This document shows positions 7,289-25,679 of a stretch of DNA of 64,000 nt, in pieces. A program made the translations under genes and the position numbers. The notes below the pieces were generated by a model. The model was not told where the DNA came from. It did no database searches and worked only from the letters and a program-made list of their open reading frames with translations. Origin of the DNA: a virus. Each line of letters starts with the position of its first letter. Positions within the stretch are counted from its first letter, which is position 1. The stretch lies in IMG/VR virus record IMGVR_UViG_3300009448_000011, positions 41,688-105,687 of that record; one strand, given 5' to 3'.

Positions 7289-7723
7289 TTAAAGTTTTTT
7301 TTCCTGATAAGAACCCGACAATATTAAATCACCTTGACTTAAATCTTTGTTTTGTTTGTACCCAAAAGTCCGCCTTGTTTTAAAAGAATCGTTTAAAAAT
7401 ACAATTTTTTCATCAAAAATGACATTATTATAGATTGTAAGTGTATGCAATACTTTGTGTGAAATAGAAAGAATGCGGGAAGTAGTAGGATGAGAGGTAA
7501 AGTAGCCAGAGCCCCGTTGTATTTGAGTATCGTCGTTAAAAGTACAATTAAAAGAACCTTTGCCGTTAATGGAAGACCAAACAACGTCATAATAGTTAAC
7601 AAAAGGATTAGTCCAAGTAAAGGTAGTAATGAAACTTTTGATAGTGCCGGAAGTAGGATAAAGATAAGTACGATGACTTTCCCAAGTACCCAAACTGCGA
7701 TTAAAAAAAGAAGTTAATTTCAT
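7289..7723 (-). CDS. CpcS/CpeS/CpcV-type phycobiliprotein lyase
   Basis: FFNRSLGTWESHRTY N-terminus, RGSGY, FDEKI, KTRRT and GSYQEK fit the S-type lyase pattern. Confidence 0.7.
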   Translation of the reverse strand: MKLTSFFNRSLGTWESHRTYLYPTSGTIKSFITTFTWTNPFVNYYDVVWSSINGKGSFNCTFNDDTQIQRGSGYFTSHPTTSRILSISHKVLHTLTIYNNVIFDEKIVFLNDSFKTRRTFGYKQNKDLSQGDLILSGSYQEKKL

Positions 7724-9219
7724 AAAAGGTTAATATTTTCTTTACCATATATAGTAGTAGCAATTTGAATTCTATTTTGGGATTGATTTTTAAACCAAAA
7801 CTGAGTATCTATAAAATCAATAACAGTAGGAAATTGTTTGCCGTCTTTCTTACGTAATAAACGGCCGACGCGTTGTATAAAATCATTACTAGATTTACCT
7901 GCGGCGGCCAAAATAATACTAGAAAGACTAGGAATATTGATACCTGCAGTAAGAACTTTAGGACCAGCAATAACGCCATTTATTTTACTATCCTTTAAAT
8001 CTTGAATAATAAGTTCTCTTTTTTTCTTAGAAAGATAGCCACTAATAATAGGAAAATTCAAACCATGTTGTGATAAGAGAGAAGAAATAATATCAGCATG
8101 ATTGCCATCGCCTTTAACTTTATTAACAATAATAATAATAGGACCTTGTTTCTTATTAACTTCTTCAATTGCTTTAGTAACAATAATATGATTACGACCT
8201 GAATTATTTATAATTAAATTATTATAAACAAGAGGTAAAATTTTATATCTATGAGAGTCAGAAAGAGTACTAATATTAGCGGCATTTTTTTGCAAAGAAG
8301 TAGGTAAAAACCCTTTAGGAGAAGTATAGAAATAAAATTTAGGTTGCATTATAATATTTTGTTGTATTAAATCCAGTTCAGAGATAGTACAAATACGAGA
8401 ACCAAAAAAGGCTTCTAAAAAGAGAGAGTGAGGGCCAACAATGTCGGGAGTAGCAGAAAAAGCCAAAGAAATGCGGCGATTAGTTAAGTGTTCAATTAAA
8501 GATTGAAAAGTAGGATTACAAGTTAAATGACATTCATCAGTCAACAAAACATCGACAGAATTTAAATAAGATTTTGATTTAGATAAATTAGATAAAGAAT
8601 TAGGAATACCGACAGTGACATCATTAAAGATATAATGTCCATCGCCGACAATACCGATATTAATTAAAGGAGAATGAGAGAGAGAAAAATAGTCATTAAT
8701 ATCGTGAGTCATTTGATATAACAAATTAATAGTAGGAACTGTAATTAATACTTTCAAATGATCTTGAGTAAATATTTTAACTAATTCGCCGATACAGAAA
8801 CTTTTCCCAGAACTAGTAGGAGATTTTACAATGCCGCGTTTAAATTGTAAACAAGAGGTTACAATTTGTTTTTGGTGAGGACGTAAGATAGAGCTAAGAG
8901 AGAGAGAGTGAGGAATATATTTAGGAATAGTAGAAACAATTTCCAAATCAGAGCGTGAAATAACGGTATTATCGTCCCAAATATCTGTTAAGAGTCTAGA
9001 AATAAAACCTGAGTACAAAAAAACATCCCAAGTATTATTATTATTTTTAGTAGCTTTAAAGAGATATTTTTTAGTAGCGGCAAGAGTCAAACAATTAGGA
9101 CTAAAAAGAGATAGAGTAGCTTCATCAATAAAGTGTACTAATTCTTTAGATAAATACTCTACATACTCTCGGGGACATTCTTTCAATATAGAATATGTAG
9201 GTGAATATTTTATTTTCAT
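7720..9219 (-). CDS. SF2 DExH helicase (UvsW-like)
   Basis: LRPHQ, SPTSSGKS, DECH, SATP, GINIPSL, QRVGRLLR. Confidence 0.9.
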   Translation of the reverse strand: MKIKYSPTYSILKECPREYVEYLSKELVHFIDEATLSLFSPNCLTLAATKKYLFKATKNNNNTWDVFLYSGFISRLLTDIWDDNTVISRSDLEIVSTIPKYIPHSLSLSSILRPHQKQIVTSCLQFKRGIVKSPTSSGKSFCIGELVKIFTQDHLKVLITVPTINLLYQMTHDINDYFSLSHSPLINIGIVGDGHYIFNDVTVGIPNSLSNLSKSKSYLNSVDVLLTDECHLTCNPTFQSLIEHLTNRRISLAFSATPDIVGPHSLFLEAFFGSRICTISELDLIQQNIIMQPKFYFYTSPKGFLPTSLQKNAANISTLSDSHRYKILPLVYNNLIINNSGRNHIIVTKAIEEVNKKQGPIIIIVNKVKGDGNHADIISSLLSQHGLNFPIISGYLSKKKRELIIQDLKDSKINGVIAGPKVLTAGINIPSLSSIILAAAGKSSNDFIQRVGRLLRKKDGKQFPTVIDFIDTQFWFKNQSQNRIQIATTIYGKENINLL

Positions 9220-9362: not shown

Positions 9363-10616
9363 TTAAAAAGGCATACTATCGAGATCATAATCAGAAGGCT
9401 GAGAGATAGTACGAATAGAAGGAGAAGGAGAAGGAGAAGGAGAGGAAGGGACATTAATAGTACCATCGACTTGAATAGAAGTAGAAGGTTCAAGAGTTAA
9501 AGATTCAATAGTAGGAGAAGGAACTTCAACGGACCAAGATTTAAAAGCACGAGAATACTCAGGAATAAAAACTGCGCCGAGACTTCCAAAATGAGCTTGA
9601 AAGAGAGGAGAAGGGCCAGGGCTTTTGCGATAAGTCAAAGAAAGATAGTGAAATACAGGATTACGGAGGGGATCACGAGAATTTTTAAATTGGAAATGTA
9701 AGTCGCGACAATAAGATTCAAAACCAACGACAGAAAGATCAGGATCTCTTTTACCATTAGAGGATTTAATAGAGCGACCTTGAATATTAGTTTTACTTAA
9801 AGGAACTTCCATAAAAACAAATTCGCCAATATTGTTGCCATTAAGATCTAAAAGAGAAGAAACAGGATAGCTAACATTAGACATAACATAAGAAGATTTG
9901 CCATTAGCATCAGTTGTTTTAACATTTTTACGAACAAGGACTTCAAAAACAGCGAGATAAAGTTTGCCACGAGGGTCGCAAGAAATACGTTTATCAGAAC
10001 CACCGTCACCAATACCGGGAATAACTTCAGTAGAGAAGCCACATTTAATACAATCAGAACAACTAGTAGTTTTTTCGCCTCTATAACCGACTAAGCCCAA
10101 TTTTTCCACAGAAGGATTAGGTTTAGTATTATTAACAGACCATTTATTAGTAGACATATCCTTTTCAAAAGCATACTTCATACCATAAGGAACAGTAGGA
10201 AGAGCTTTAATTAATTGACCTTTCTCTGTATAGCCAAGAACAGAACAAAGAACATTTGTTTTTTCACCATCAAAATATCTTAATTCATCACGTTGTTGAT
10301 AGAGCATTACAGCGCCACGAAGTTCAATTACATTACCTAATTCAATAGGCTCACCACCTTCTTCTTTAGGAGGTAGAAATAGATATTCACTTTCTCTAAT
10401 AGAGGGATTACCATCATTATGTAAAGAAGTCCATTTAATAACACCATCAGATTTATGTGTATCAAAAACACTTCTAATTTTTTTAGGACGAGAATAAGAA
10501 GTAGATTTTTTACTACCACCTCCTGAATAAAAATCAGAAGAACTATCCAAGTTAATATTTAATTCTTCCGCCAATAACAATAAATCATTATTATTTGTTT
10601 TAATTAAATCCGACAT
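9363..10616 (-). CDS. Putative ssDNA-binding or annealing protein
   Basis: Lies in the replication cluster; Pro/Ser linker and acidic-aromatic C-terminus DYDLDSMPF. Confidence 0.4.
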   Translation of the reverse strand: MSDLIKTNNNDLLLLAEELNINLDSSSDFYSGGGSKKSTSYSRPKKIRSVFDTHKSDGVIKWTSLHNDGNPSIRESEYLFLPPKEEGGEPIELGNVIELRGAVMLYQQRDELRYFDGEKTNVLCSVLGYTEKGQLIKALPTVPYGMKYAFEKDMSTNKWSVNNTKPNPSVEKLGLVGYRGEKTTSCSDCIKCGFSTEVIPGIGDGGSDKRISCDPRGKLYLAVFEVLVRKNVKTTDANGKSSYVMSNVSYPVSSLLDLNGNNIGEFVFMEVPLSKTNIQGRSIKSSNGKRDPDLSVVGFESYCRDLHFQFKNSRDPLRNPVFHYLSLTYRKSPGPSPLFQAHFGSLGAVFIPEYSRAFKSWSVEVPSPTIESLTLEPSTSIQVDGTINVPSSPSPSPSPSIRTISQPSDYDLDSMPF

Positions 10617-10635: not shown

Positions 10636-11463
10636 TTAATTTAGATTAAATAAATTACGAACAGTAGAAACAGTTAAGTTTGAATAATTATGTACTACAT
10701 AATCAAAAATAAATACAGCTTCTTGTATTCTTATTTTTCCTTTATAGAACGCATCTTTAAAAATCATGTAATATAAAAGTAATTGAGGAGCATAAGTTTC
10801 GAGACTTTTAAAAACCTGAGAATTATTATGAGGGCCTCGTATAAAAAGTAGAAACAAATCAGTTGTGTTTATATGTAATAAATACTTTTTAGAATCAGTG
10901 GCATACATATTTAATAAATAAGTTTTAGAAGCATCGCTTGTTTTATTATATAGAAAATCCAAATCTGGAATAGAAAATTTTTTATTACCTCGTTCTTGAT
11001 AAAGAAAAAATAAATAACGAACTTCATTTTTCCATTTAGTAGGATTAGAGTTAAATTTTTTTATACAATATTCTGACCAAAAATAAGGCCAAGCATCTAT
11101 ATCTAAAATAGAAGACACACATAAAATTTCATGTTGATATTGCAGAGGACATAAAGAAAATTCTGTTACCCCTTCTAACTCTAAAAATCGTTTATATACC
11201 TTAGTATTTTTAATTATTAAATACGTTTTATTATTCTTATTTTGCCTATACTCTTTTTTTAATATTTCTTCTCCTTCATAATTAACAATATAAATAGTCA
11301 TATTAAGTTCTCCTAAAGAATCATAAGAAACACTATTAAGGAGAGTATTAGAAATATGTAGTAGAGAATTAGTAGTAGAAAAAGAGAGTAATTTTTGTTC
11401 TACATTAGTATTAAGAATATGATATTTTACAAGATTAAAAGGAGAATTACTAATTATTAACAT
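10636..11463 (-). CDS. Hypothetical protein (possible clamp-loader small subunit)
   Basis: Overlaps the 3' end of the clamp-loader gene; function inferred from position only. Confidence 0.3.
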   Translation of the reverse strand: MLIISNSPFNLVKYHILNTNVEQKLLSFSTTNSLLHISNTLLNSVSYDSLGELNMTIYIVNYEGEEILKKEYRQNKNNKTYLIIKNTKVYKRFLELEGVTEFSLCPLQYQHEILCVSSILDIDAWPYFWSEYCIKKFNSNPTKWKNEVRYLFFLYQERGNKKFSIPDLDFLYNKTSDASKTYLLNMYATDSKKYLLHINTTDLFLLFIRGPHNNSQVFKSLETYAPQLLLYYMIFKDAFYKGKIRIQEAVFIFDYVVHNYSNLTVSTVRNLFNLN

Positions 11464-12694
11464 AATACTTTAGATATTCCGACCAAGTAGTAAAAGAAAA
11501 ATTAGCCATTTTAATTGGCTTTGAAGTTAAAGGTTTTCCAACCAATTTTTCTAATTGAGAAGTAACTAGTTTACTAACTTTTACTACATTTAAACTTTGA
11601 GGTGGAGATTGAGATTGAGATTGATTTAAAGATTGAGATTGAGATTGAGATTGAGATTGAGATGAAAGAGATAATAAACATTTACCTTGATAAAGTTTAA
11701 AAATAGAAACAACAGGAATTTTATAAGAAGATTGAAGCCAAAAAGACAAAGAACTAAGAAAGTGAATACCTTCGAGATTCAAATTTTGAGAAACCAAAAA
11801 GGATAAAAAATAAGAAATAGCAACTTCTTCATTAGTTAAAATAGTTTTAAAAAAAGAAGAGGTATTATCCCAAGAGTTAGATTGAAGACTAAGAAGTAAA
11901 GAGTGACAAGATTCAAGATTCAAGCCGCCTAATTTTTCAGAAGAAATATGAGAAGGAGTTAAGAGAGAAAGAGAGCCTTCAGATTTAGTAATAAAATACT
12001 GTAAAGTTTGCCAAGCTTTTCTAACATTACCGTTAGACAAATAGGCGATTAAATCAGCACAAGAAGGATGAAGATCCGAATAAAAAAATTGAAGTTTAGA
12101 ACTAATAGAAGAAGAAGAAATAGGAGATAAAGAAAGTTCAATACAGCGACTTTCGATAGCCTCTCTAACGATAGAATCCATTTTATCTAAATCCATAGAA
12201 ATCAAAATAACGGTAACATTATCAAGAGCAAATTCTAAGGAATCAAGAAAGGGGCTAATAGATTGACGAGAAGCAGATTGAACTTCATCAATAATAATAA
12301 ATCTACGATTATTATCATGTCTAACATTATCATGAGTTAAAACTGTAGTAGATTTAGTAAGACTAATTAAATCAGAAACAGCTTCCTTAAACACTGAAGC
12401 TTCTGTAATAGAATAATAAGTAATATTAGGATGTTGATTTTTATGTATGGTTTTAGAACAAGAAGAACAGTGATTACAAGGTTGAAAATCGTGTTCTAAA
12501 CGTTGTTCACAAAGAGTAGCTTTAACATAGAGTTGAGCAATAGTAGTTTTACCTGAGCCACTACCGCCACTAATAATCAAGCCACTAGGATGTTTATTAG
12601 TTTTAATAACAGATTTCAAATAATTAGCGGCGCCATCTTGTTCTAGATATTCATCCCAAGTAGAGGGACGATAGTCATTAATAGAGTTAGTCAT
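11450..12694 (-). CDS. Clamp loader AAA+ subunit (DnaX gamma/tau-like)
   Basis: YRPSTWDEY, GGSGSGKTT, C..PCNHCSSC zinc module, IIDEVQ, SRC motif. Confidence 0.85.
   Translation of the reverse strand: MTNSINDYRPSTWDEYLEQDGAANYLKSVIKTNKHPSGLIISGGSGSGKTTIAQLYVKATLCEQRLEHDFQPCNHCSSCSKTIHKNQHPNITYYSITEASVFKEAVSDLISLTKSTTVLTHDNVRHDNNRRFIIIDEVQSASRQSISPFLDSLEFALDNVTVILISMDLDKMDSIVREAIESRCIELSLSPISSSSISSKLQFFYSDLHPSCADLIAYLSNGNVRKAWQTLQYFITKSEGSLSLLTPSHISSEKLGGLNLESCHSLLLSLQSNSWDNTSSFFKTILTNEEVAISYFLSFLVSQNLNLEGIHFLSSLSFWLQSSYKIPVVSIFKLYQGKCLLSLSSQSQSQSQSQSLNQSQSQSPPQSLNVVKVSKLVTSQLEKLVGKPLTSKPIKMANFSFTTWSEYLKYYVNN
11605..11662. repeat. (GAGATT)n hexamer repeat encoding a Ser-Gln linker
   Basis: Tandem gagatt units. 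Confidence 0.8.
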
Positions 12695-14880: not shown

Positions 14881-16053
14881 TTAACAATTAGCCTCATAAA
14901 TAATAACATCACTAGAGACGTCATCTTGTTTATGAGAACACAAATGAATAACTTTAATAGGAGTTGAGTTTTTAACATCAATTTTTTTAATATTAATTTG
15001 AACAGTATCAAGAGGAAGAATTTTATGTTTAGGGCCACCCATAGCGCGAAGAGCTTTAATAATATGGCCAACAGAAAGATTAATTTTCTCAAAAATACCT
15101 TGAGTAGAAACTTTCAAAGAAGAAGGAATAATAATATTACTTTTACTACTATCAATTTTAATATGAAATTGGGAGAGTTCGAGATCAACTTCAAAGTTAA
15201 TAATATTAGTTTCAGTAGAATCATAACTTTGCCATTTAATACTTTCAGTAATATCTTCATATTCGACTTGAATAAAGGAATTACAAGGTTGAGAAATAAT
15301 AGTATCAACTTTAAGAACAATATTATTAGGAGAATTATCAACTATAAAACACATTTCGCCTTCATTAGAATAAAACTTAAGAGAGTTAAGAGAAGAGCTA
15401 AAAGAAAGCATTACCTGATCGCCGAGGAGAGGAATAATACGAAGAAGAGCGGGTCTAATAGCGCCTTTAAAATGGCCAGTACTATTAGTAGAAGTAATAG
15501 ATTTATAGCGAATATAGCTAGTTTCAGTAAATTGAACATACATAAAGATAGTAGAAGAATTAGTAGTAACAAATATTTCTCTATCATTATAAGAATTAGC
15601 ACAAGCAATAGGAATCAAGTCCAAGAAATAAGAAAGAGAGGGACAAATATCGACATAAGAAAGAGGATCAAATAATTTATCAGAAAGAAGACTATCTTGA
15701 CTAAAATATTGATTATCAACAATAGAGCCAAAAGGTTTCATTTCATAATGTAAAAGATTATTATTACTAGAGATTTCCAAGCCATATTTAGGATTAAGCT
15801 TAGCAGTCATTGCTTTTAATTTATTAGAGAGAACAATTTGGCGACCTTCTTCAACAATATCAACTAAAAGTTTCAATTTAACAGAATGACTAGTCAAATC
15901 AACAGTAGTAATTTCGAGAGTCCCTTCCGCTTTATTTGTTTTTAACTCAATACATTGTTCCACACTATTAAGTTGTTTTCTTATACTAGGAATCGAGCAA
16001 ATAGCATTAATGATTTTTTTATAATCAGCTATATTTTCTATTCTAACTTTCAT
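14881..16053 (-). CDS. Sliding clamp (DnaN beta-like)
   Basis: 390 aa; N-terminus LEITTVDLTSH..VEEG; located near the clamp loader. Confidence 0.55.
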   Translation of the reverse strand: MKVRIENIADYKKIINAICSIPSIRKQLNSVEQCIELKTNKAEGTLEITTVDLTSHSVKLKLLVDIVEEGRQIVLSNKLKAMTAKLNPKYGLEISSNNNLLHYEMKPFGSIVDNQYFSQDSLLSDKLFDPLSYVDICPSLSYFLDLIPIACANSYNDREIFVTTNSSTIFMYVQFTETSYIRYKSITSTNSTGHFKGAIRPALLRIIPLLGDQVMLSFSSSLNSLKFYSNEGEMCFIVDNSPNNIVLKVDTIISQPCNSFIQVEYEDITESIKWQSYDSTETNIINFEVDLELSQFHIKIDSSKSNIIIPSSLKVSTQGIFEKINLSVGHIIKALRAMGGPKHKILPLDTVQINIKKIDVKNSTPIKVIHLCSHKQDDVSSDVIIYEANC

Positions 16054-16093
16054 AATATTATTTATATTCTTTATTATTAATAATCAATTACAT

Positions 16094-16123
16094 TTGACAT
16101 ACTAAGTTATGGTATGTTATACT
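16094..16123 (+). promoter_or_regulatory. Sigma70-type promoter of cassette copy 1
   Basis: TTGACA-18 nt-TATACT with extended -10 TG. Confidence 0.7.
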
Positions 16124-16147
16124 TTAAAAAAGGAAAAAGAGAATAGA

Positions 16148-16732
16148 ATGAATTTAGAAACTTGTCAAAACTTAAGCTTGATAATAGAAAAAGACCAAAC
16201 AATTGAAGTAATTGAAATTTGGGCAAAAGTATTATATATAAGAAGAAGCAAAGGAAGAAATTCATTTTATTCGAAGAAAGGAATAACAAAAGAAACAGAA
16301 GGAATATTTTGTAATAACTTAAAAGTTTCAGAAAATTATAAAAGCCTTTTTAAAAAATACCACCCCGATTTAAACAAAGGAAAAGAAAGTTATGTTGACA
16401 TTTCAAAAAACATTAATAGATGGAAAAACTTATTACTTGAGAGTGGACAAAGAGAGTTTGATCAACAATTATATACAGAGCTTATTGAGTTTTGTGGACC
16501 ACTCACATCCATTTTCACTATTGGAACCAGAGCAAGTTTTATCGCAAAACAAACGTGCGGATCTATCAACATCCCTCAATTTAGTTCTGAACAGGAATTT
16601 GTTGAGTGGAAAGCAGCGCCAAAGCAAGTTGCTTCCAGGCAAGCGTTCCTTGATAGCCAACTTACTAGAGCTCAAATCATCAAAAAGTACGGTAAATCCT
16701 ACTATGATTATGAAAGAGATCTTCCTTTTTAA
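16148..16732 (+). CDS. Cassette ORF-A copy 1 (IEIW domain, partial J-domain, PF tail)
   Basis: MNLETCQNL aligns with the other copies; YKSLFKKYHPDLNKG; ends ERDLPF. Confidence 0.75.
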   Translation: MNLETCQNLSLIIEKDQTIEVIEIWAKVLYIRRSKGRNSFYSKKGITKETEGIFCNNLKVSENYKSLFKKYHPDLNKGKESYVDISKNINRWKNLLLESGQREFDQQLYTELIEFCGPLTSIFTIGTRASFIAKQTCGSINIPQFSSEQEFVEWKAAPKQVASRQAFLDSQLTRAQIIKKYGKSYYDYERDLPF

Positions 16733-17138
16733 TCCTGACCAGGACACTATAATACGTCCTTACGGATTAGAAAAAAATCAAATGTATAGTAATTATATGC
16801 CAACGGGCAAAGAAAGCAAAAATTATTTAAGGAGTTACATTAATAAAGCAGAATCTTTAGGGATCAAAGTCAAAGCTTTCAATTTTAACATTTGCGGTCC
16901 TGTTGTCACACAAGAAGCTATTGAATTCGCCAATTACATGAATATTGCAATTAAAGAATTAAATGGAGTGAAAATACAAATCAATGTATTCACTTTGGAA
17001 CAATTAATCAAAGAATTAATGACAAATATAAATGGAAACAAATGGTTCATCACTTCGCAAGTTCCAAGTATATGCTGGGGAAAAGATCAGGTACAATATT
17101 TAATTTCAGAAAAAAAAGCTATATTAACAGAAAGTTAA
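16392..17138 (+). CDS. Cassette ORF-B copy 1, PD-(D/E)XK endonuclease (free-standing)
   Basis: E...EPEQ..KRADL...LLELK; homologous to the three other copies. Confidence 0.7.
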   Translation: MLTFQKTLIDGKTYYLRVDKESLINNYIQSLLSFVDHSHPFSLLEPEQVLSQNKRADLSTSLNLVLNRNLLSGKQRQSKLLPGKRSLIANLLELKSSKSTVNPTMIMKEIFLFNPDQDTIIRPYGLEKNQMYSNYMPTGKESKNYLRSYINKAESLGIKVKAFNFNICGPVVTQEAIEFANYMNIAIKELNGVKIQINVFTLEQLIKELMTNINGNKWFITSQVPSICWGKDQVQYLISEKKAILTES

Positions 17139-17222
17139 CGTTCTGATTCATCTATTCCTTCAGACTTATCAATTTTATTCATTTCGCCCCAAAGACCATC
17201 TAAATTTTCTTCATCAGAACCC

Positions 17223-17696
17223 TCATTGTTCTGATGATTCTTTTTTTTTCTCAACCTTACTAAAGTCTTCAGTTACAGTATTAAAAATTTTAATAATAGC
17301 TTGTTTTTCTTGTAGAAACTTCATTAAGGCACTTGTTAGTGAAGTATTACATTCACTAACAACATGCATAGAATATTCAAGATAAAGATCATCAGGGTTC
17401 AAAGAACTAAGAGAAAGAATACCTTCAAGACCAGGCTGAACACTCATAATAATATTAATCAAAAAATCGGGGCTTATAAAAAGAGGAACTTCTATAGGCA
17501 AAACAATACGAATTAAATGATTAGATAAAGGATAAATTTGAGAAAAACCGTACGAAGTTTCTCCTTCAATTAACCACCCTTTATCTTCTAAAAATTTAAC
17601 ATTACAAAATTCTAAATATTGAAATAATATTTTATTATTACGAATAGAAAGCATATATTCGTAAGGATTAAAATTAGGATTAGGAGTAGAAAGCAT
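17223..17696 (-). CDS. Hypothetical protein (may extend to 17135 by frameshift)
   Basis: ORF with an A9 run before the stop and an acidic continuation in the +1 frame. Confidence 0.55.
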   Translation of the reverse strand: MLSTPNPNFNPYEYMLSIRNNKILFQYLEFCNVKFLEDKGWLIEGETSYGFSQIYPLSNHLIRIVLPIEVPLFISPDFLINIIMSVQPGLEGILSLSSLNPDDLYLEYSMHVVSECNTSLTSALMKFLQEKQAIIKIFNTVTEDFSKVEKKKESSEQ

Positions 17697-17719
17697 ATAT
17701 TCGTAAGGATTAAAATTAG
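17645..17719. repeat. 33-bp direct repeat (42-bp period)
   Basis: tagaaagcatatattcgtaaggattaaaattag at 17645-17677 and 17687-17719. Confidence 0.85.
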
Positions 17720-17751
17720 TTTTAAAAAAATTGACTTTTTGTTATTTTGAT

Positions 17752-19306
17752 TTACCTAAAATAGCAGAATGCCCCCATCAGAACGGTACTCCGTTTGGTG
17801 GCGGGATGAATGCGAGTGAGGCGACGATTGCCTGTCCTCCTTCCGAGATCTACCGATTGTCGGGATTGTCGGACAGGCATAAGGAGACGAACAAATTCAT
17901 TGCTTATTCAATGTTTTATCTGAGTTTTTCTGGATAAAATTATGCTATCATAGTTTCATGATAGTTAGAGAAGCCAAGCTAAAATACGGTACAGCAGAGC
18001 AATATTCTGCCATTGATAAAGCCATCCGAACAGCACAGTTCATTCGGAACAAAGCCGTTCGCTATTGGATGGACAATCAAGGTACGAGTAAAGCCGATCT
18101 GTACAGTATCTGCAAAGACTTGGCTAAAGAGTTTGACTTTGCTAAAAAGCTTAACTCCGCTGCTCGTCAGGCTAGTGCTGAACGTGCTTGGGTTGCTATC
18201 TCTAGCTTCTACACCCGATGCAAAAAGCGGCTCACTCCAGTTGGGTCTCCCAACCATGGAAGTAAGACAAAACAAGGCGTAGGCAAGAAAGGTTTTCCAA
18301 AGTTTAAGAAACATTGTCGTTCTGTTGAGTATAAGGTTTCAGGATGGAAACTATCGAAAGATTGCAAATCGATCGCATTCACTGATGGTTTTGAGATTGG
18401 AACATTATCGATATTTTGCAACAATGAAACTCAAGAAGACTTGCATAGGCTGAAAATTAATCGTGTGCGGATCGTGCGGAGAGCAGACGGGTATTATGCC
18501 CAATTCTGTTTTGATGCAGATCGTAAAGAGCAAGGGGAATATTCAGGCAATGTTGTCGGATTGGATTTAGGGTTGAAGTTTTTCACCAAAGACCAAAACG
18601 ATAATGCTGTAATATATCCACAGTTCTTGAGAAAGGCCCAGATGCAACTCAAGAAAACTCAACGTCGATTAAGCAAGAAATTTGTGAAGGGTGCCAAACC
18701 CCAATCAAACAACTACCACAAGGCGCAAAAACAACTAGGAAGAATTCATCTCAAAATTCAACGCCAGCGAAAAGATTGGGCGATAAAAGCCGCCCGAAAC
18801 GTAGTGATATCTAACGATGTCGTGGTGTATGAAAATTTGAAGATTGCGAACATGGTCAAAAATCATCATTTGGCTAAGTCAATTTCCGATGCTGGTTGGT
18901 ATCAATACACTCAATGGCTGGACTACTATGGCAAGATTTGGGATAAAGCAGTTGTGGCAGTATCGCCAAACTATACGTCTCAAGATTGCTCTAATTGCGG
19001 TCATCGAGTGAAAAAGTCTCTTAGTACCAGAACGCACTCATGCCCCAACTGCAAAATTGAAATTTGTCGCGATACGAATGCGGCTTTGAATATCTTGCAC
19101 AAGGGATTGAACATTCTTGGTGTTGAGTGGGACAAAAACAGTACTTCTGGGCAAGAAGGATCTGCCTCTGAGAATGAGGGAAAGCGCGGGGAGAGATGTA
19201 CCTCTACAGTCGATGAGTAATTAAAGACTGCAAGTAATTCTCTGTGAACCGCGAATAAGAATCCCCCGCTATATCGGTACTTCGATTAGCGGCGGGAGTA
19301 TGTCAA
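17752..19306 (+). mobile_element. IS200/IS605-family tnpB-only element (IS1341-like)
   Basis: Preceded by TTGAT and ends in TCAA; related subterminal hairpins at about 17772-17805 and 19263-19296; GC visibly higher than the flanks. Confidence 0.85.
17958..19220 (+). CDS. tnpB: RNA-guided endonuclease TnpB
   Basis: RuvC motifs GLDLGL, VVYENL and RDTNAA; zinc finger CSNCG..CPNC; GFPKFKK. Confidence 0.93.
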   Translation: MIVREAKLKYGTAEQYSAIDKAIRTAQFIRNKAVRYWMDNQGTSKADLYSICKDLAKEFDFAKKLNSAARQASAERAWVAISSFYTRCKKRLTPVGSPNHGSKTKQGVGKKGFPKFKKHCRSVEYKVSGWKLSKDCKSIAFTDGFEIGTLSIFCNNETQEDLHRLKINRVRIVRRADGYYAQFCFDADRKEQGEYSGNVVGLDLGLKFFTKDQNDNAVIYPQFLRKAQMQLKKTQRRLSKKFVKGAKPQSNNYHKAQKQLGRIHLKIQRQRKDWAIKAARNVVISNDVVVYENLKIANMVKNHHLAKSISDAGWYQYTQWLDYYGKIWDKAVVAVSPNYTSQDCSNCGHRVKKSLSTRTHSCPNCKIEICRDTNAALNILHKGLNILGVEWDKNSTSGQEGSASENEGKRGERCTSTVDE

Positions 19307-19349
19307 AAAAAGTCAATGAAAAAAGTAAAAAAATTAATAGTTAAAAAAA

Positions 19350-19772
19350 TTAATAGTTAAAAATATCTATAGTTGTATTATTGTTAGTTCGTTTAAAGAT
19401 ATAACTATTATTTTGATAGAGGGTGTATTCTTTTAATTGAATACCAGGAGTGATCAAGTCATAATCAAAAGCAACAATAGCATAGCCAGTGCCATCATTA
19501 ATAGTCCAGGTTATATAGAACTTACTTTTCAAATATTGATCATAGCTAGTATCCATGTCGTAGTAGATACCGTAGGGGGTAGTATTTTCCAGGTAAATTT
19601 GGCTAGAAGAAGTAGCACAATAATTCGATTCTGTCAAACCCAACCACATATTATCGGGAGAACAAGTATTTTGAGAATTTGGCTCGGTTAATTGAAGTTC
19701 TGCAGAGGCAGAAGAACCGCTGATCAAAATACTTAAAATAACTACAATGCCGATTTTCAAATTATTAAACAT
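19350..19772 (-). CDS. Secreted hypothetical protein
   Basis: N-terminal signal-peptide-like segment. Confidence 0.55.
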   Translation of the reverse strand: MFNNLKIGIVVILSILISGSSASAELQLTEPNSQNTCSPDNMWLGLTESNYCATSSSQIYLENTTPYGIYYDMDTSYDQYLKSKFYITWTINDGTGYAIVAFDYDLITPGIQLKEYTLYQNNSYIFKRTNNNTTIDIFNY

Positions 19773-19900
19773 TATTTTTTTTATAGTAAATAGTGAATAT
19801 TAAATAAATTACATATTTTCAATTAAAGCAGCAAAATGTCCTCCTTCGGACTAGTATTCCAGTTAAAGGAGGGTAAGGAAGTAATGTTAACAATTTTTTT

Positions 19901-20503
19901 TCATTTAGCGGCCCAACTAGTACCCAATTTACATTCTGCTTTAGAAGGAAAATCAGGCACTAATTTATGTAATAATTCATCCATTGCTTTTTTCATTCCT
20001 AATTCTTGTGCAGCAGCATATTCATAAGAAATATCTTGAAATTTATATTCAGGAATATAAACTTCCCCATCTTTTCTTACATTTACTACTTCACCTTGTC
20101 CAGGGATATAAGTAATACATTCATCATGAACTAAGCCTACGATATAGCCTGGAGAAGAATGTTGTTTATACTTAGTATTAAGCTGAGTAAAAAACTGATC
20201 GATATAATGTGCGGCGCGTTTTGTCATAATACTAGAAAGGCCTTGTATAATGGTATTACAACCTTTACGCATAGTAGCGCCATCATTTTCTATTCCGTGA
20301 GCATTACCTTCGCCAACGAAATAGCGTCTATTTGTTATAGGACATTGTACCCATTTTTGATATCTAGCCAAAGAACTAGTATTATCAATATAGACTTGCA
20401 ATTCTGGAAATAAATTAAAATAGTTTTTAAGAAGTTGTTCAGCAACCTTAATATCTATTTGAAGAGCGGTAGAAATTCTATTAGCACTTCCACCATAAAT
20501 TAC
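19901..20503 (-). CDS. polA: PolA polymerase subunit, exon 3
   Basis: VIYGG, NTIIQG and motif C VHDE; the exon begins after the intron's terminal G at 20504. Confidence 0.9.
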   Translation of the reverse strand, partial: VIYGGSANRISTALQIDIKVAEQLLKNYFNLFPELQVYIDNTSSLARYQKWVQCPITNRRYFVGEGNAHGIENDGATMRKGCNTIIQGLSSIMTKRAAHYIDQFFTQLNTKYKQHSSPGYIVGLVHDECITYIPGQGEVVNVRKDGEVYIPEYKFQDISYEYAAAQELGMKKAMDELLHKLVPDFPSKAECKLGTSWAAK

Positions 20504-20556
20504 CTTAAACCCTAAATTTTCATCTAGGTTTGGACTATACCTTTTAATGTAATTAT

Positions 20557-20586
20557 TTGACATACATTAAAACACCGTGTTATAAT
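20557..20586 (+). promoter_or_regulatory. Sigma70-type promoter of cassette copy 2
   Basis: TTGACA-18 nt-TATAAT with extended -10 TG. Confidence 0.8.
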
Positions 20587-20613
20587 TAGTATAACAAAGA
20601 AACATTTTAGATA

Positions 20614-21192
20614 ATGGACATACAAACAGCGGCGAATTTACAAGAATTAATAGAACAAGATCCTTTAATAGAATTAATCGAAATATGGGATAAAGTTTTA
20701 TACATAAGAAAAGTAAAAGGCCGAGGAAGGTTTCATACTAAAAAAAATATTACTTTGTTAAAAAGTGGAATATACATCAATACAAAATATATACTCCAAG
20801 AATACAAAAGACTTCAAAAAAAATATCACCCTGATTTAAACAAAGGAAAAAAAAATTATGTTGAAATTTCAAAAAGCATTAATCAATGGAAAGACTTATT
20901 ATTTGAATGTGACGAAAGAGAACTCAATAGAACAGTATATCAGTTACTTATTACAACATGTGGACCGCTCACATCCATTTTCAGCATTGGAAAATCAGCA
21001 GACTTTATTTGGGGGCAAGAGGCCGGATTTCTCCACATCCCTAGATTTAATTCTGAACAGGAATTCAAGGAATGGAAAATTCCCTTTAGGAATTGGGCGG
21101 AAAAACTCGATGATTGCCGATTGCCTAGAAGTAAAAGGAAGTTCTCAGATGTTGAGCACTACGGAGTTAATGAAAGAGATCTTCCTTTTTGA
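20614..21192 (+). CDS. Cassette ORF-A copy 2
   Basis: IEIWDKVLYIRK, YKRLQKKYHPDLNKG; ends ERDLPF. Confidence 0.75.
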   Translation: MDIQTAANLQELIEQDPLIELIEIWDKVLYIRKVKGRGRFHTKKNITLLKSGIYINTKYILQEYKRLQKKYHPDLNKGKKNYVEISKSINQWKDLLFECDERELNRTVYQLLITTCGPLTSIFSIGKSADFIWGQEAGFLHIPRFNSEQEFKEWKIPFRNWAEKLDDCRLPRSKRKFSDVEHYGVNERDLPF

Positions 21193-21589
21193 TGCAGCAG
21201 AAACTATTGTTCCTACTTATGATGTTTCTATGTCTGATTTTCAATCTCAATATTTTCCATTGGGGAAAGAAAGCAAGAATTATTTCAGAAGTTATGTGCA
21301 GGAAGCACTTAATAGAGGCATCAAAGTGAAATCATTTACTTTTTGGTTTGCGGGCCCTCTAGTGTCTATTGAAGCCATCAAATTTTCTATTTATTGGAAT
21401 CGCGTGATCAAACAAATAGGTGGAATTCAAGTAGAAATCAAAGTTTTGTCTTTGGAACAATTAATTAATTACATCATTTCCAATATTCCAACAAAAAAAT
21501 GGTATGTATTAAATCAACATCCTTCTGTTTGTATGAGTAGAGCGCAGGTTGAAGCTCTAATAGAAGCTCAACTAGCCATTTTAGTATAA
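20858..21589 (+). CDS. Cassette ORF-B copy 2, PD-(D/E)XK endonuclease
   Basis: LENQ..KRPDFS...CLEVK. Confidence 0.75.
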   Translation: MLKFQKALINGKTYYLNVTKENSIEQYISYLLQHVDRSHPFSALENQQTLFGGKRPDFSTSLDLILNRNSRNGKFPLGIGRKNSMIADCLEVKGSSQMLSTTELMKEIFLFDAAETIVPTYDVSMSDFQSQYFPLGKESKNYFRSYVQEALNRGIKVKSFTFWFAGPLVSIEAIKFSIYWNRVIKQIGGIQVEIKVLSLEQLINYIISNIPTKKWYVLNQHPSVCMSRAQVEALIEAQLAILV

Positions 21590-21616
21590 TCTTTTAATAT
21601 CTAATTATCTTTAAGT

Positions 21617-21649
21617 CGCCTTGTACATTAATGTATTTAGGCGTTTTTT
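21617..21649 (+). terminator. Intrinsic terminator of cassette copy 2
   Basis: cgcct...aggcg hairpin followed by T6. Confidence 0.7.
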
Positions 21650-21787
21650 ATTATGTATTCTTAAAAGTCTCTGAACCATTTTATAAACTTTCATTTATAG
21701 CTGGCTGCTGATTGACATATAGTATTTTTTAAACTACTTAGTGTTCCAGCAATTGAGTGTTTTTTACTTCACCATAATTTACAATTT

Positions 21788-22051
21788 AGTGAAGCCGCAG
21801 ACTTTACCACGGTCTCTTCTTGTCCATCCATTCATATCTTTTTTAGCTTCTTTAATAACATTCCATTTAGGAACAGTAGCTAATTCAGGGTACATTCCAA
21901 TAGCCGAAACTACATGAAGATCCCCGTCAGGATTAGGATATGTTTCTTTTGTATGTGGATTAATAAGAAAGGGATTATGCACTTCGGCATCGAAAAACGC
22001 ATTAATCATTCTCTCTATTTTTGCTATACAAGCAATAGCTCTTACTTCTTG
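21788..22051 (-). CDS. polA: PolA polymerase subunit, exon 2
   Basis: QEVRAIA...GDLH...RDRGKVCGFT. Confidence 0.9.
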
Positions 22052-22271
22052 CAATATAGTTTTATTCTATACTGGCACTACTCTTCACCATCTCTATTAA
22101 GTACAGGTGTTTTACGTCAGTGCTCTACTCTTGCCCAATTAATATAATAGAATAATAGTTCTAATTAATTTGCTAGATCGGGATTAGTTTACTATCACTT
22201 TCCCCGAATTGGTAAAATATTTTTTATACTATTTCTAATATAAACGACCCTTTTTTATTGTATTTATTTGT

Positions 22272-22300
22272 TTGACATTCAGCCATATAAGAGATACAAT
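22272..22300 (+). promoter_or_regulatory. Sigma70-type promoter of cassette copy 3
   Basis: TTGACA-17 nt-TACAAT. Confidence 0.8.
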
Positions 22301-22327
22301 AAAAAAAAGACAAAAAACAAATAAGGT

Positions 22328-22900
22328 ATGGATGCTCAAACTTGTAGAAACCTACAAACATTAATTGATAAAGATAATAATATTGAACTCATAGAAATAT
22401 GGGCCAAGGTACTTTATCTAAGAATGAAAAAAGGAAAAAACAAGTTTTGCAGTAAAAAAGGAATAACTAATTTAAGCTCAGGAATTTATTTAAACTTAAC
22501 TAACTTTAAAAATGAATACACAAAATTGCAACGAAAATATCACCCAGACAAAAATGCAAAACATTTTGAAATTTCAAAAGGTATTAATCAATGGAAAGCA
22601 TTTATATTTGAATGTGACAAACGAGAACTTAATAGAACAGAACTTAATACATTACTTGAATCATGTCCCCCCAACACATCCTTATTCTCTCTTAGAGAAC
22701 CAGCAAGTTATTTACAACAACAAGAGACCGGACTTTTCAACCACCTTGACGACATTGCCAGGCACTATTGGGCCACTGTTACGCCTAAGCAAAGAGCTGA
22801 GGCAGAAGCTAGGGAAGAAGAATGGCTTGCTCGTCGATGTGGTAGAAACAAAGATGGAAGTAAATACGTCGACCCTTATGAAGGAACTTGTCCCTTTTAA
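22328..22900 (+). CDS. Cassette ORF-A copy 3
   Basis: IEIWAKVLYLRMKKG, LQRKYHPDKN; ends YEGTCPF. Confidence 0.75.
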   Translation: MDAQTCRNLQTLIDKDNNIELIEIWAKVLYLRMKKGKNKFCSKKGITNLSSGIYLNLTNFKNEYTKLQRKYHPDKNAKHFEISKGINQWKAFIFECDKRELNRTELNTLLESCPPNTSLFSLREPASYLQQQETGLFNHLDDIARHYWATVTPKQRAEAEAREEEWLARRCGRNKDGSKYVDPYEGTCPF

Positions 22901-23300
22901 AGAAGATGCACAACAATTTGTTGATTCATCTTTTAGAAAGGAACAATTTACTTTTAATGCAGAACGCGTTGTCAATTATAAATGTTACATAAGCAATTAT
23001 GTGAAAGCTGTTCAACAAAAAAAAGGTAAAGTAAAACAAATTACTTTTGCTTTTGTAGCTCCAAAAATAACAGTAGATGCATATGAATTGGCGTGGATTT
23101 TAACACATAGTCCAATTTACAATAATATTGGTGGCGTTAAAATCATAGTAGAATTATATACATTAGAAGCTTTTATCGAAAAACTGATTAATATAATCCC
23201 AGCCAATAAATGGTTCATTAAAAGTTCAATTCCTTTTAATTGTGTAAATGGGAGAGATGTAGATCTTCTAGTTAAAGAAAATAGAGCTATTATTATTTAA
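22512..23300 (+). CDS. Cassette ORF-B copy 3, PD-(D/E)XK endonuclease
   Basis: LENQ..KRPDFS...VVETK. Confidence 0.75.
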   Translation: MNTQNCNENITQTKMQNILKFQKVLINGKHLYLNVTNENLIEQNLIHYLNHVPPTHPYSLLENQQVIYNNKRPDFSTTLTTLPGTIGPLLRLSKELRQKLGKKNGLLVDVVETKMEVNTSTLMKELVPFKEDAQQFVDSSFRKEQFTFNAERVVNYKCYISNYVKAVQQKKGKVKQITFAFVAPKITVDAYELAWILTHSPIYNNIGGVKIIVELYTLEAFIEKLINIIPANKWFIKSSIPFNCVNGRDVDLLVKENRAIII

Positions 23301-23326
23301 TTTATTTATTTTTTATCTTTAGTAAT

Positions 23327-23356
23327 AAACTCAGTATATAGGTGTATACTGAGTTT
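23327..23356 (+). terminator. Probable terminator hairpin of cassette copy 3
   Basis: aaactcagtata/tatactgagttt inverted repeat followed by T-rich sequence. Confidence 0.6.
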
Positions 23357-23373
23357 CAATTTATATTTAGTTA

Positions 23374-23460
23374 AGCCGAGTAATCACTAATACCCACACA
23401 CATACCTTTAGGCGCCGCACCTAAAGCTTTTCTTACCGTTGTTGTAATTTCATATGACAT
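23374..23460 (-). CDS. polA: PolA polymerase subunit, exon 1 (29 codons, missing from the ORF track)
   Basis: MSYEITTTVRKALGAAPKGMCVGISDYSA; the spliced product is 29+88+200 = 317 aa. Confidence 0.85.
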
Positions 23461-23522
23461 ATTTAATTTTAAATTTGGTTTAATTAATGAAAAAGAATAA
23501 ATAGCAATAGAATTAAAATATT

Positions 23523-23876
23523 TTAAACAATATTATGTTTCAACAAAACAAGAATGATTTGTTTAATAATATCGCCATGACAATCATTAGGTTTGCACCA
23601 ACAAGCAAGTTTAAAATCTACCCCTTTTTTTTCTAATTGAGCTAAGCGAATCAATTCATCATAAACAGAGCCTTTTTTCAAAGAATACATTTGAAGAATC
23701 CAGGCCTTATAGAGCTGTAGACTTTCTGCAAGAGTTCTATTATGTCTAACTGCATAAGGATTATTTAAAGGGCTAGCTTTTAAATTGTAATAAGCATTTT
23801 TACGGCCAATGTAGATAATATCTTCGCCAACAAATCCGTCTTTTTTCCCATTGATAATGTGCATAGAGTTGTTCAA
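23523..23876 (-). CDS. DUF4326-like protein
   Basis: IYIGR..SPLNNPY...LACWCKPNDCHGDII. Confidence 0.8.
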   Translation of the reverse strand: MNNSMHIINGKKDGFVGEDIIYIGRKNAYYNLKASPLNNPYAVRHNRTLAESLQLYKAWILQMYSLKKGSVYDELIRLAQLEKKGVDFKLACWCKPNDCHGDIIKQIILVLLKHNIV

Positions 23877-23883
23877 TTAAATA

Positions 23884-25173
23884 TCAAAATTGATGTTGAT
23901 CAATAGAAATAACAGCAAGAGTAGAAGAAACTTGTTGTAAATTAGCAGAGCCACTAGAACTCATGCGACCTGTACTAGAACCTATAGAAGAAAAACCGAC
24001 ATGTACGTTATTAGTAGTACTATTAATAATAGAGTTATACTTCAAACATTCAGACCAAAGTTTACTATATTTTTTATAACGTAACAAATTTTTAATTAAA
24101 TTAATATGACTATATTTAGAAATCAAATAATTCTCATCAAATAAAGGTTCTTTTTCTTCATCAAGGGCTTCTTGTTTTAGTAGATCAAGATATAATTTTA
24201 TTTCATCTGCTTGCAAGCTAGATAAAGAAGCGCCGCCTAATTTAGTCAAATAATCATTAATAAAAGAAACTAAGCCCTTATTATTATTAAGTAAAGTTTT
24301 GACTTTATCAGGAATAACATACTTAAGTTCCCAATGACCTTGAGCATTAAGATCAGTATCAGTATAGATAGTAAAACCTAATTCATGTACTAAATAAGAT
24401 CTATGAAGATTAGTTTGTTCTTCGGCATAAGAAGTAATCTTAGCTAATAGAGAAGTATCGAGACACATGCCGTAATATTCCATTTTTGCACAAATAACAG
24501 TAGCTTGCTGATCTGATTCGTATGCAAATTGTTGATGAAGAAGATCAAGTTGAGTTTTAAATAAATAATAACCTTCAATTAATATAGAATTAATAGAAGA
24601 AAGTTTAGGAGCGCCAACATCTAAAGCGGCATAACCTAATTGGCTAGTAGTTAAAGGTCGTTCACCCCAAGAACTAGTAGCTTCACTTTTATCGAGATGG
24701 ATATCAAAATAATCCCTTGCTAAATCTTTAAGACCATGGCCTCTAAATATAGAAGCTTTCATTCCTGTAGTAATGGCCAAACTTTTCATTAAAGTCAAAG
24801 AACAAACAGTATTAACGGGCCAGGATTTAAACTCGTTATAAAATTGTTTTAAATCAAATTGACTATAGTGAAGTATTTTTAATATATTTTCATTAAGCAA
24901 TACTTTTGTATTAAATAAAGATTTAGCAGAAGAACTCAATAATATAAAATCTAAAATATAAGGAATAGAATGATTTATACTATTTAATTGAACTAAAGAT
25001 ATTTTAGAACTATGAGGATCCAAAGCACTAGGATTTACTTTAGATAAATCAATCATAGTTTCAGTATCCAGTGCAATTTCCTTACTTTCTACACAAAAAT
25101 CAATTATTGCCTCTATATCTTTATCTTCTGTTACATAATAAATATCAATTTCCGCTGTTTCTATTAATTTCAT
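23884..25173 (-). CDS. polA: PolA N-terminal subunit (3'-5' exonuclease and thumb)
   Basis: ALDTET, FDLK, YAALDV, TGRMSS..NLQQ; the ORF stops before motif A. Confidence 0.88.
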   Translation of the reverse strand: MKLIETAEIDIYYVTEDKDIEAIIDFCVESKEIALDTETMIDLSKVNPSALDPHSSKISLVQLNSINHSIPYILDFILLSSSAKSLFNTKVLLNENILKILHYSQFDLKQFYNEFKSWPVNTVCSLTLMKSLAITTGMKASIFRGHGLKDLARDYFDIHLDKSEATSSWGERPLTTSQLGYAALDVGAPKLSSINSILIEGYYLFKTQLDLLHQQFAYESDQQATVICAKMEYYGMCLDTSLLAKITSYAEEQTNLHRSYLVHELGFTIYTDTDLNAQGHWELKYVIPDKVKTLLNNNKGLVSFINDYLTKLGGASLSSLQADEIKLYLDLLKQEALDEEKEPLFDENYLISKYSHINLIKNLLRYKKYSKLWSECLKYNSIINSTTNNVHVGFSSIGSSTGRMSSSGSANLQQVSSTLAVISIDQHQF

Positions 25174-25235
25174 ATTAAAAAAAATATATAATTCTAATTA
25201 AATATTTAATTAGAGTATATAATATAGAATTAGGA

Positions 25236-25679
25236 TTAAGAAGACAAAGTAGAAATATCTTGTTTCAAAGATTCTATTTCAGAAGAAACAGCTAAAGAAT
25301 TAAAATCAAATTCAACAGAAGAAGAAAGGTCAGGATTAGGGGAAGAATCTTGTTGAAGTTGTTGAGAGACATAAGAATCTGCATCAAAAACAGAAAAGCC
25401 AGAAGATTGATCTAGAGAATTGGGGGCAACTCTAGGAATAGAGGGGGCCTCAGTAGAAATAGTGACTTGATTTTTGTCAGTATAACGAGGTTGAAAAGGA
25501 GAATCATTAGAGGAAGAAAGAGAAGAGTTGCGAGAATATAAAGAAGATGTAGAGCTTTTAACTGCTTCTGCGGCGGTATTTAAGATACAATCAATTTGAT
25601 ATGTTTTCTCTATTAATTCTTTCCGAGCAGCAACTAATTCTGAAACAGACATAGTTTTATAAGATTTCTTTTTTATCAT
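25236..25679 (-). CDS. Hypothetical Ser-rich protein
   Basis: ORF between recA and polA. Confidence 0.5.
   Translation of the reverse strand: MIKKKSYKTMSVSELVAARKELIEKTYQIDCILNTAAEAVKSSTSSLYSRNSSLSSSNDSPFQPRYTDKNQVTISTEAPSIPRVAPNSLDQSSGFSVFDADSYVSQQLQQDSSPNPDLSSSVEFDFNSLAVSSEIESLKQDISTLSS

Follow-up and report, generated by a model that had tools for sequence, protein, structure and literature searches.

A J-domain core and an SSB-tip-like tail on a protein encoded in overlap with a probable nuclease gene in a viral mobile cassette

[quoted passage not shown] Phage J-domain proteins, SSB-like tails on phage SSBs and homing-nuclease modules with an accessory antitoxin are already known. Rki (ORF 057w) of the T4-like phage RB43 is a type III phage J-domain protein acting on host DnaK (PMC3486835), and DnaJ homologues are known in large aquatic phages (PMC12619734). 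The J-domain protein AtcJ of Shewanella oneidensis is encoded first in its operon and its C-terminal 21 residues bind the operon partner AtcC (PMC6715715). Acidic C-terminal peptides have been described for the SSB tip, DDDIPF, and for prophage DUF669 proteins (PMC5872125, PMC13687109), the DUF669 proteins having recently been shown to be non-canonical phage SSBs, with DDDIPF-like ends in those of prophages (PMC13687109). The phages termed 'moraphages' encode two-gene homing-endonuclease modules consisting of a CcdA/HicB-like antitoxin and a PacI-like endonuclease (PMC12619734). Here we describe a two-gene mobile cassette in a 64,000-nucleotide stretch (the window) of virus record IMGVR_UViG_3300009448_000011 (positions 41,688 to 105,687); the whole record is 105.7 kb in length, with 29% guanine plus cytosine (GC) and an estimated completeness of 62%. 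Among sequencing runs, a groundwater metagenome, probably the source, is alone in containing this stretch in full, and the runs listed include none of RNA. The first open reading frame (ORF) of the cassette, ORF-A, combines a J-domain core with a C-terminal peptide resembling the SSB tip, and the second, ORF-B, is a probable nuclease gene overlapping it.

The J-domain core of ORF-A

Four copies of the cassette were identified in the window, ORF-A being the first gene and ORF-B the second in each:

16109/16148-16732, plus strand: ORF-A copy 1, likely start 16148, ending ERDLPF; ORF-B copy 1 at 16392-17138
20614-21192, plus strand: ORF-A copy 2, the protein that was modelled, ending ERDLPF; ORF-B copy 2 at 20858-21589
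22328-22900, plus strand: ORF-A copy 3, ATG to TAA, 190 amino acids, ending EGTCPF; ORF-B copy 3 at 22512-23300
39821-40411, plus strand: ORF-A copy 4, GTG start, ending DGTLPF; ORF-B copy 4 at 40008-40814

An earlier note on this DNA had reported the motif Y..L..KYHPD and these four endings in the ORF-A copies, and both were confirmed by alignment, the motif being present in all four paralogues at pairwise identities of 34-51%. A degenerate KYHPD pattern has four matches in the window (16355, 20821, 22535 and 40031, all on the plus strand) against none expected in 100 shuffles, and each match falls in one ORF-A paralogue. The ORF-A family amounts to 22 proteins among 5.8 billion, with 18 lying outside this genome and five coming from one 282-kb contig; identity among these relatives is 33 to 54%. 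Four parts can be distinguished in the protein, namely a basic alpha/beta domain, a J-domain core, a disordered linker and a C-terminal peptide, which in copy 3 are placed as follows:

22328..22498, plus strand: N-terminal basic domain, residues 1-57; a helix and four strands, clear of the overlap with ORF-B
22499..22666, plus strand: J-domain core, residues 58-113; helix II, HPD (22541-22549), helix III and the start of helix IV
22667..22870, plus strand: linker, residues 114-181; poorly conserved, predicted to be disordered and overprinted on the catalytic half of ORF-B
22871..22900, plus strand: tail DPYEGTCPF and the stop codon; SSB-tip-like C-terminal peptide

The structure of ORF-A was taken from an AlphaFold (AF2) model of paralogue 2, a single prediction using the 22-sequence alignment. 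It is confident over residues 1-98, with a predicted local distance difference test score (pLDDT) of about 90; a helix at 3-15 is followed there by four strands (between 19 and 55), a helix at 60-70, HPD at 72-74 and a helix at 80-98. HPD (H72-P73-D74) lies between the latter two helices and is invariant in all 22 relatives, with Y64, K/R65 and then I..N.WK..L of the following helix near-invariant in the family. Helix II reads EYK.LQ.KY, its K/R being retained, and helices II and III have a pLDDT of 88 to 92.

When a profile of the 22 members was compared with the PDB, 49 sequences were matched, all of them J-domains (best hit DNAJA1, E 8e-7). The alignment with DNAJA1 covers helix II, HPD and helix III and continues into the helix IV turn 'SD..KRE.Y'; helix 106-116 of the model could be helix IV. 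The Pfam DnaJ family (PF00226) gave 13.4 to 24.4 bits with the four copies (E 3e-5 to 0.09), the alignments starting at 15 to 18 and spanning about positions 15-59 of the 63 in the profile, and one relative, P0007, has a precomputed PF00226 match. Foldseek placed the ORF-A hairpin on the DnaK-bound J-domain of DnaJ (5nro_B) with a root mean square deviation of 2.2 Å over 43 residues and 40% identity, the global E-value being poor, and VIA, a search independent of Foldseek, returned several J-domains among its top rows, with Z at about 3 only. NCBIfam gave weak DnaJ and HscB matches only, beyond which PHROGs, PADLOC and NCBIfam yielded nothing informative for ORF-A, and nothing for ORF-B. Judged by the profile alignment (8e-7 being the best PDB profile match), the HPD region is a homologous J-domain core that comprises helices II and III and the beginning of helix IV; as canonical helix I was not detected, the 'partial J-domain' of the earlier note is a fair description.

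The best-conserved part of ORF-A is formed by residues 1-57, where I19, I22, W25, L29, Y30, R32, G36, F40, K43 and G52 are invariant and the net charge is +1 to +6. Comparison of the model with the PDB by Foldseek, with VIA wide and with BFVD gave no fold match for this N-terminal domain (none reaching E 0.001, or Z at most 3.1), searches by which the domain was barely tested. Its conservation is one of three points in favour of regarding the J-like region as a degenerate remnant that does not work with DnaK, ORF-A acting instead by its basic domain in nucleic-acid binding or regulation of the cassette; the others are the sub-threshold Pfam scores and the want of a canonical helix I. We consider this improbable, given that HPD, Y64, K/R65 and the Ile/Trp positions of helix III have been kept at 33 to 54% identity, a pattern typical of working J-domains. 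No Hsp70 gene was found in the virus record, so any J-domain activity of ORF-A would be exerted on host DnaK. Within the adaptor account set out below, the J-domain of ORF-A probably works with DnaK.

The overlap with ORF-B and the C-terminal tail of ORF-A

ORF-B of the third cassette is read in the +1 frame relative to ORF-A:

22512..23300, plus strand: ORF-B copy 3, 262 amino acids; overlaps ORF-A by 389 nucleotides and contains KRPDF ... VETK

Among the cassettes the overlap measures 335 to 404 nucleotides, and in each of the four copies a run of 111 to 134 codons is free of stops in both frames, whereas the third frame has many. In ordinary genes of this phage, stops make up 8% of the +1 frame and 16% of the +2 frame, and the longest open off-frame run is 80 codons. 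Synonymous recoding of ORF-B with the codon usage of the phage left the ORF-A frame open in 0 of 5000 trials per copy, and in the reverse test, where ORF-A was recoded, the fraction with ORF-B open was 0 to 0.003. ORF-A and ORF-B are a real overlapping dual-coding pair, each frame with its own constraint.

Long forms of ORF-B were called independently in other contigs (P0031, P0032 and P0035). The PD-(D/E)xK signature KRPDF(S/G)T...[V/L]E[I/L/V/T]K, situated inside the ORF-A overlap, is conserved in them. The long form of copy 3 is predicted by AF2 to fold as one confident domain (pLDDT 86.8, predicted template-modelling score 0.83), for which the top Foldseek matches in the PDB are the catalytic domain of EcoRII (prob 0.87, E 6e-3), Nt.BspD6I, NucS and SduA. 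ORF-B is therefore a probable PD-(D/E)xK nuclease with a restriction-endonuclease-like fold; its reading as a nuclease in the earlier note is supported, as a prediction, by the conserved motif, the AF2 fold and the Foldseek matches. We considered but rejected a shorter ORF-B initiated at the MKEI Met, which closely precedes the ORF-A stop: relatives have F or L in place of this Met, and the catalytic PD...ExK is encoded upstream of such a start.

Conservation along the overlap is uneven. In the four paralogues all three codon positions are conserved in the HPD/helix III stretch, at 22616-22735 the third position of ORF-B is the most variable, a pattern characteristic of ORF-B, and both frames are variable in the last stretch. 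A relative with roughly 90% identity, the P0006/P0029 locus, provided contigs that aligned to 22557-22901, and its 31 listed substitutions relative to copy 3 were classified by their effect in each frame:

ORF-A non-synonymous, ORF-B synonymous: 15
non-synonymous in both frames: 12
ORF-A synonymous, ORF-B non-synonymous: 3
synonymous in both frames: 1

The totals are 27 non-synonymous changes in ORF-A and 15 in ORF-B. As 27 of the 31 alter ORF-A and no stop has been gained, the protein sequence of the linker evolves almost freely while its frame is kept open; the model has a pLDDT below 50 at 127-143 and 161-192. Copy 3 and the P0006/P0029 locus also differ by a compensated frameshift, in which a base insertion after 22617 is offset by a deletion of one base at 22622; it alters a few residues in both frames, ECDKRELN to ECEHREFS in ORF-A and NVTNENLI to NVSTENLV in ORF-B. 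At 22820-22850 and in the paralogues, the ORF-A motif GR[N/D]K[D/E]G corresponds to the catalytic [V/L]E.K of ORF-B read one base earlier (GRNKDG = VETKME). Since this motif is explained by ORF-B, not all conserved ORF-A motifs in the overlap are due to selection on ORF-A.

At the C-terminus, 14 of the 22 relatives end in PF, three in PW and one in PFL, so that P-[F/W]-COOH is found in 17 of 22. The end-anchored consensus of these 17 sequences is [D/Y][P/D][Y/F][E/D][G/R][D/T][L/I]P[F/W]; mean net charge is -1.8 in the last nine residues and +2.6 in the preceding thirty. Several tails, such as PFDGDLPF and KDSDLPF, are very near the tip of Escherichia coli SSB, DFDDDIPF. Neither Pfam nor NCBIfam gave an SSB match indicating an oligonucleotide-binding (OB) fold or SSB domain in ORF-A, and the model consists of a helix and four short strands followed by helices. 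By these comparisons ORF-A is not an SSB, and only its tail resembles one. Identity of the tail as a beta-clamp motif (QL[S/D]LF) was rejected by eye, there being no Q or L-x-L-F pattern.

The tail codons of relatives were inferred by pairing ORF-A C-termini with those ORF-B proteins that could be encoded, in the two frames, by a single common DNA sequence. Compatibility extends over 15-20 codons in five pairs (P0007/P0024, P0010/P0034, P0013/P0033, P0016/P0036 and P0018/P0037), with misfits at most at the ORF-B start codon, and the pair P0014/P0030 is compatible over the nine available codons. Together with the window copies these give the following codons:

tail Pro: CCT, CCC, CCA; ORF-A P throughout; ORF-B L, P, H
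terminal aromatic residue: TTT, TTC, TGG; ORF-A F, F, W; ORF-B F, S, G

The tail codon changes are silent or conservative in ORF-A and radical in ORF-B. The position of the tail relative to the ORF-B motif E[L/I]F also varies, the displacement being one codon in both P0018/P0037 and P0014/P0030, some five to six codons in P0016/P0036, whose ORF-A stop falls on the conserved Glu of ORF-B, and some 19 codons in P0010/P0034, where ORF-B reads TFPFNK...QELFLYN. In this last pair, which lies outside the window, ORF-B reads ...TVTFPFNKEEYMLTIPKLFQELFLYN, with the ORF-A end DSDLPF-stop over the first FPFN and the usual ELF motif 15 codons further on; from its sequence, the segment looks like a small tandem duplication, each copy of which then served one frame.

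These observations bear on whether the PF end is a by-product of the ORF-B motif MKE[I/L]F[L/P]F in the overlapping frame. Such an origin would fit the DNA around the ORF-A stop, which is highly conserved in the four copies and encodes the invariant M, E and F of ORF-B, as well as the greater constraint on ORF-B over the whole overlap. It is nevertheless very improbable and largely refuted, as the Pro wobble is silent in ORF-A and gives L/P/H in ORF-B, F to W in ORF-A is F to G in ORF-B, the ORF-A codon TTC gives S in ORF-B, and the tail persists after shifts of 1, about 5 to 6 and about 19 codons relative to the ORF-B motif. Persistence of the tail despite both codon changes and register shifts shows selection in ORF-A's own frame. 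The earlier note had allowed that the tail might be explained only by ORF-B and be lost in homologues; instead, it is kept in 17 to 18 of the 22 relatives under selection in the ORF-A frame.

The same codons speak to another reading, in which CCN-TTT-TAA is a programmed +1 frameshift site fusing ORF-A to the C-terminal half of ORF-B and conservation is at the RNA level. CC[T/C] TTT T[A/G]A is present in all four window copies, tRNA-Phe could re-pair in +1 before the stop, and +1 is the frame of ORF-B; however, the inferred TTC-TAA (P0014), TTC-TGA (P0016) and TGG-TGA (P0018) are not slippery, and a fusion is not needed by the long-form ORF-B, which has its own start, holds the catalytic PD...ExK and folds as one domain. 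We give this reading hardly any credence. Within the adaptor account, the ORF-A tail is likely to be a functional docking motif; that the pocket it enters is of the SSB-tip type is suggested more tentatively, and we lean slightly away from it.

A second protein of this virus has an end of the same kind:

9363..10616, minus strand: SSB candidate of 417 amino acids in the replication module; a Ser/Pro low-complexity run followed by the tail SDYDLDSMPF

This ORF, whose C-terminal end is ...SPSPSPSPSIRTISQPSDYDLDSMPF, is situated between a helicase gene (7720-9219) and a clamp-loader gene (11450-12694). In the whole record, 5 of the 170 ORFs of at least 60 amino acids have P-[F/W/Y] ends, namely the four ORF-A copies and 9363-10616. 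No match to the canonical SSB family (PF00436) was found anywhere in the record. ESM look-alikes of the candidate are the Pam3_Gp34, DUF5895 and DUF669 clusters, with scores of 0.89 to 0.91 and template-modelling (TM) scores of at most 0.52, a lead only. The earlier note had likened the ORF-A tail to that of the phage's own SSB: the ending DLDSMPF, and with it the PF tail, was verified, and the SSB assignment was not confirmed by any sequence method. Between the candidate and the clamp loader lies an ORF of 275 amino acids (10636-11463, minus strand) with no PHROG or Pfam match, which could by position be a sliding clamp and is a candidate reader of acidic aromatic C-terminal tails.

Genomic setting of the cassette

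All four cassettes are on the plus strand, and the surrounding phage genes are mostly on the minus strand. DNA similarity among the copies begins at the ORF-A start and stops at the ORF-B stop, and no terminal repeats common to the four were found. Two putative transcription signals flank cassette 3:

22272..22300, plus strand: sigma-70-like promoter, TTGACA, 17 nucleotides, TACAAT; 11 of 12 consensus positions, a consensus match only
23327..23356, plus strand: terminator-like hairpin 3' of ORF-B copy 3

Judging from the promoter match and the hairpin, cassette 3 looks like one transcription unit. Neither in 15500-25500 nor in the window as a whole did Rfam searches reveal an intron or another RNA family, whether gathering thresholds were applied or matches with E up to 1 were admitted. 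No match was obtained in the phage collection by megablast or tblastn, and no confirmed related locus was found in viral, metagenome or genome contigs.

A family-A DNA polymerase is encoded on the minus strand in at least three pieces, an exonuclease/N-terminal piece (23884-25173), a middle piece containing QEVRAIA (21779-22054) and a C-terminal piece (19901-20563); cassettes 2 and 3 sit between these pieces on the opposite strand, a region in which group I and II introns were not found by Rfam even with E up to 1. An ORF of 117 amino acids (23523-23876, minus strand) lies between the N-terminal polymerase piece and cassette 3. It matches phrog_464, of unknown function, and also parts of 'DNA repair' and NrdA-like PHROGs, and is possibly intron or intervening-sequence cargo. 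Adjoining cassette 4, an ORF of 122 amino acids (40937-41305, minus strand) contains, of an AAA ATPase domain, the N-terminal portion with Walker A only; this cassette may split another gene, of which 38716-39531 (minus strand, no Pfam match) is a possible downstream piece. Near cassette 1, a plus-strand ORF of 420 amino acids (17958-19220) has transposase families of PHROG as matches (phrog_506, E 1e-81) and so represents a further mobile element of the replication region.

Proposed mechanism and comparison with known systems

From the sequence features described above we infer DnaK binding, a partner for the tail and a biological role. The account that we prefer, at slightly less than even chances, is that ORF-A is an adaptor, a J-domain protein with a docking tail, co-transcribed with and overprinted on a nuclease gene; as part of this whole, and with the same reservation, ORF-A may be classed as a specialised, type III-like J-domain protein. 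The J-domain core with its invariant HPD would engage host DnaK, and the tail (acidic-x-[L/I]-P-[F/W]-COOH) would plug into a pocket whose usual ligand is an SSB-type tip. The disordered linker between the two would exist only because its frame stays open across the 5' half of ORF-B. The J-domain would then trigger ATP hydrolysis by DnaK at the docking site of the tail.

Three kinds of partner may be envisaged. Host SSB-interacting enzymes (exonucleases, helicases and mediators) would favour a role in repair after the cut; phage replisome proteins might also read the tail of the SSB candidate; and, by analogy with AtcJ, the partner could be ORF-B itself. For reading by the replisome there is a precedent in phage T7, where gp2.5 and gp4 share an acidic tail ending in Phe. 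The outcome would be either help in repair or turnover after the nuclease has cut, or restraint of the nuclease. Taken further, the proposal would be of a selfish nuclease cassette with its own Hsp70 adaptor, whose disordered tail arose by overprinting, evolved as an SSB-tip mimic and physically couples host DnaK to the SSB network or the phage replisome at the nuclease break; we judge this version rather unlikely.

Docking of the tail on ORF-B deserves separate mention, as ORF-A would then deliver ORF-B to DnaK or mask it in the manner of an antitoxin or immunity factor, and the likeness to SSB would be coincidental. AtcJ, first in its operon, binds its operon partner by a C-terminal peptide (PMC6715715), large aquatic phages have multi-copy homing-endonuclease modules with antitoxin genes (PMC12619734), and the deep overlap enforces co-inheritance and co-expression of the two proteins, all of which would suit such a pairing. 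A coincidental likeness is harder to reconcile with the several tails that match the SSB tip at five or six positions (PFDGDLPF versus DFDDDIPF), and with the SSB candidate being the sole other PF-ended ORF in the genome. We regard docking on ORF-B as rather unlikely.

A number of points count against the adaptor account. The binding partners proposed for ORF-A, host DnaK among them, are hypothetical. Every single ORF-A copy scores under the Pfam DnaJ cut-off of 27.8 bits, and canonical helix I was not detected, a beta strand (52-55) being placed there by the model. The tail is missing in four divergent relatives, namely P0017 and the three most divergent (P0020-P0022); it is less acidic than DDDIPF (net -1 to -3 versus -4), and its -5 G/R and -4 D/T are dictated by the invariant Glu and Ile/Leu of ORF-B. 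Phe is the last residue of 15% of ORFs in this genome of 29% GC, and the SSB identity of 9363-10616 is unconfirmed, as sequence searches of Pfam, NCBIfam, PADLOC and the PDB gave no match to this ORF and its sole PHROG is one with no name. The comparison at the DNA level comprises four paralogues and one relative.

Should the version with an Hsp70 adaptor and an SSB-tip mimic be true, it would add a new class to the accessory factors of homing and show clearly how a short linear motif can be born in an overprinted frame. It is usual to treat homing and other selfish nucleases as elements of a single protein, and a dedicated chaperone adaptor would show such elements managing the aftermath of their own cut by enzyme turnover, end processing or control of toxicity. 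An SSB-tip-like peptide on a non-SSB protein would be a new phage route into the SSB interaction hub, and the overprinted, disordered extension of ORF-A, which keeps only its open frame and a terminal two-residue anchor, provides a compact natural example of motif birth. In a limited search of full-text literature, which is weak evidence of absence, neither a J-domain protein paired with a homing-type nuclease nor an SSB-tip-like tail on a non-SSB phage protein was found.

Among described systems, Rki resembles ORF-A in being a small phage protein in which a J-domain with HPD is the sole recognisable module; its action is on host DnaK and is not that of a general co-chaperone. The J-domain of Rki is complete, N-terminal and about 63% similar to E. 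coli J-domains, whereas the J core of ORF-A is internal, without a recognisable helix I, and far more divergent; Rki has neither a nuclease cassette nor an SSB-like tail, and no sequence relation between the two proteins was seen beyond the J-domain. AtcJ, like ORF-A, is a short J-domain protein whose gene comes first in an operon, and in AtcJ the C-terminal peptide binds the partner while the J-domain binds DnaK. Unlike that of ORF-A, the AtcJ tail is not SSB-like, and the AtcJ gene is a cellular one that serves cold adaptation and does not overlap another gene. Polyomavirus large T antigen is, as proposed for ORF-A, a viral DNA-transaction protein using an HPD J-domain, but it is eukaryotic, has its J-domain in fusion with a helicase and is not related to ORF-A.

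The SSB tip shares with the ORF-A tail a disordered linker, an acidic peptide ending in [I/L]-P-F-COOH and an aromatic residue about seven positions before the C-terminus; the conserved positions are Pro and the aromatic residue at the terminus. ORF-A differs from SSB in possessing no OB fold or other known ssDNA-binding domain, in tolerating a terminal W and in carrying the tip on a J-domain protein. The moraphage modules are like the present cassette in combining a multi-copy selfish nuclease with another small gene, the supposed role of which is to regulate the nuclease or offset it; in the cassette, by contrast, this accessory gene overlaps that of the nuclease and encodes a J-domain protein rather than an antitoxin fold.

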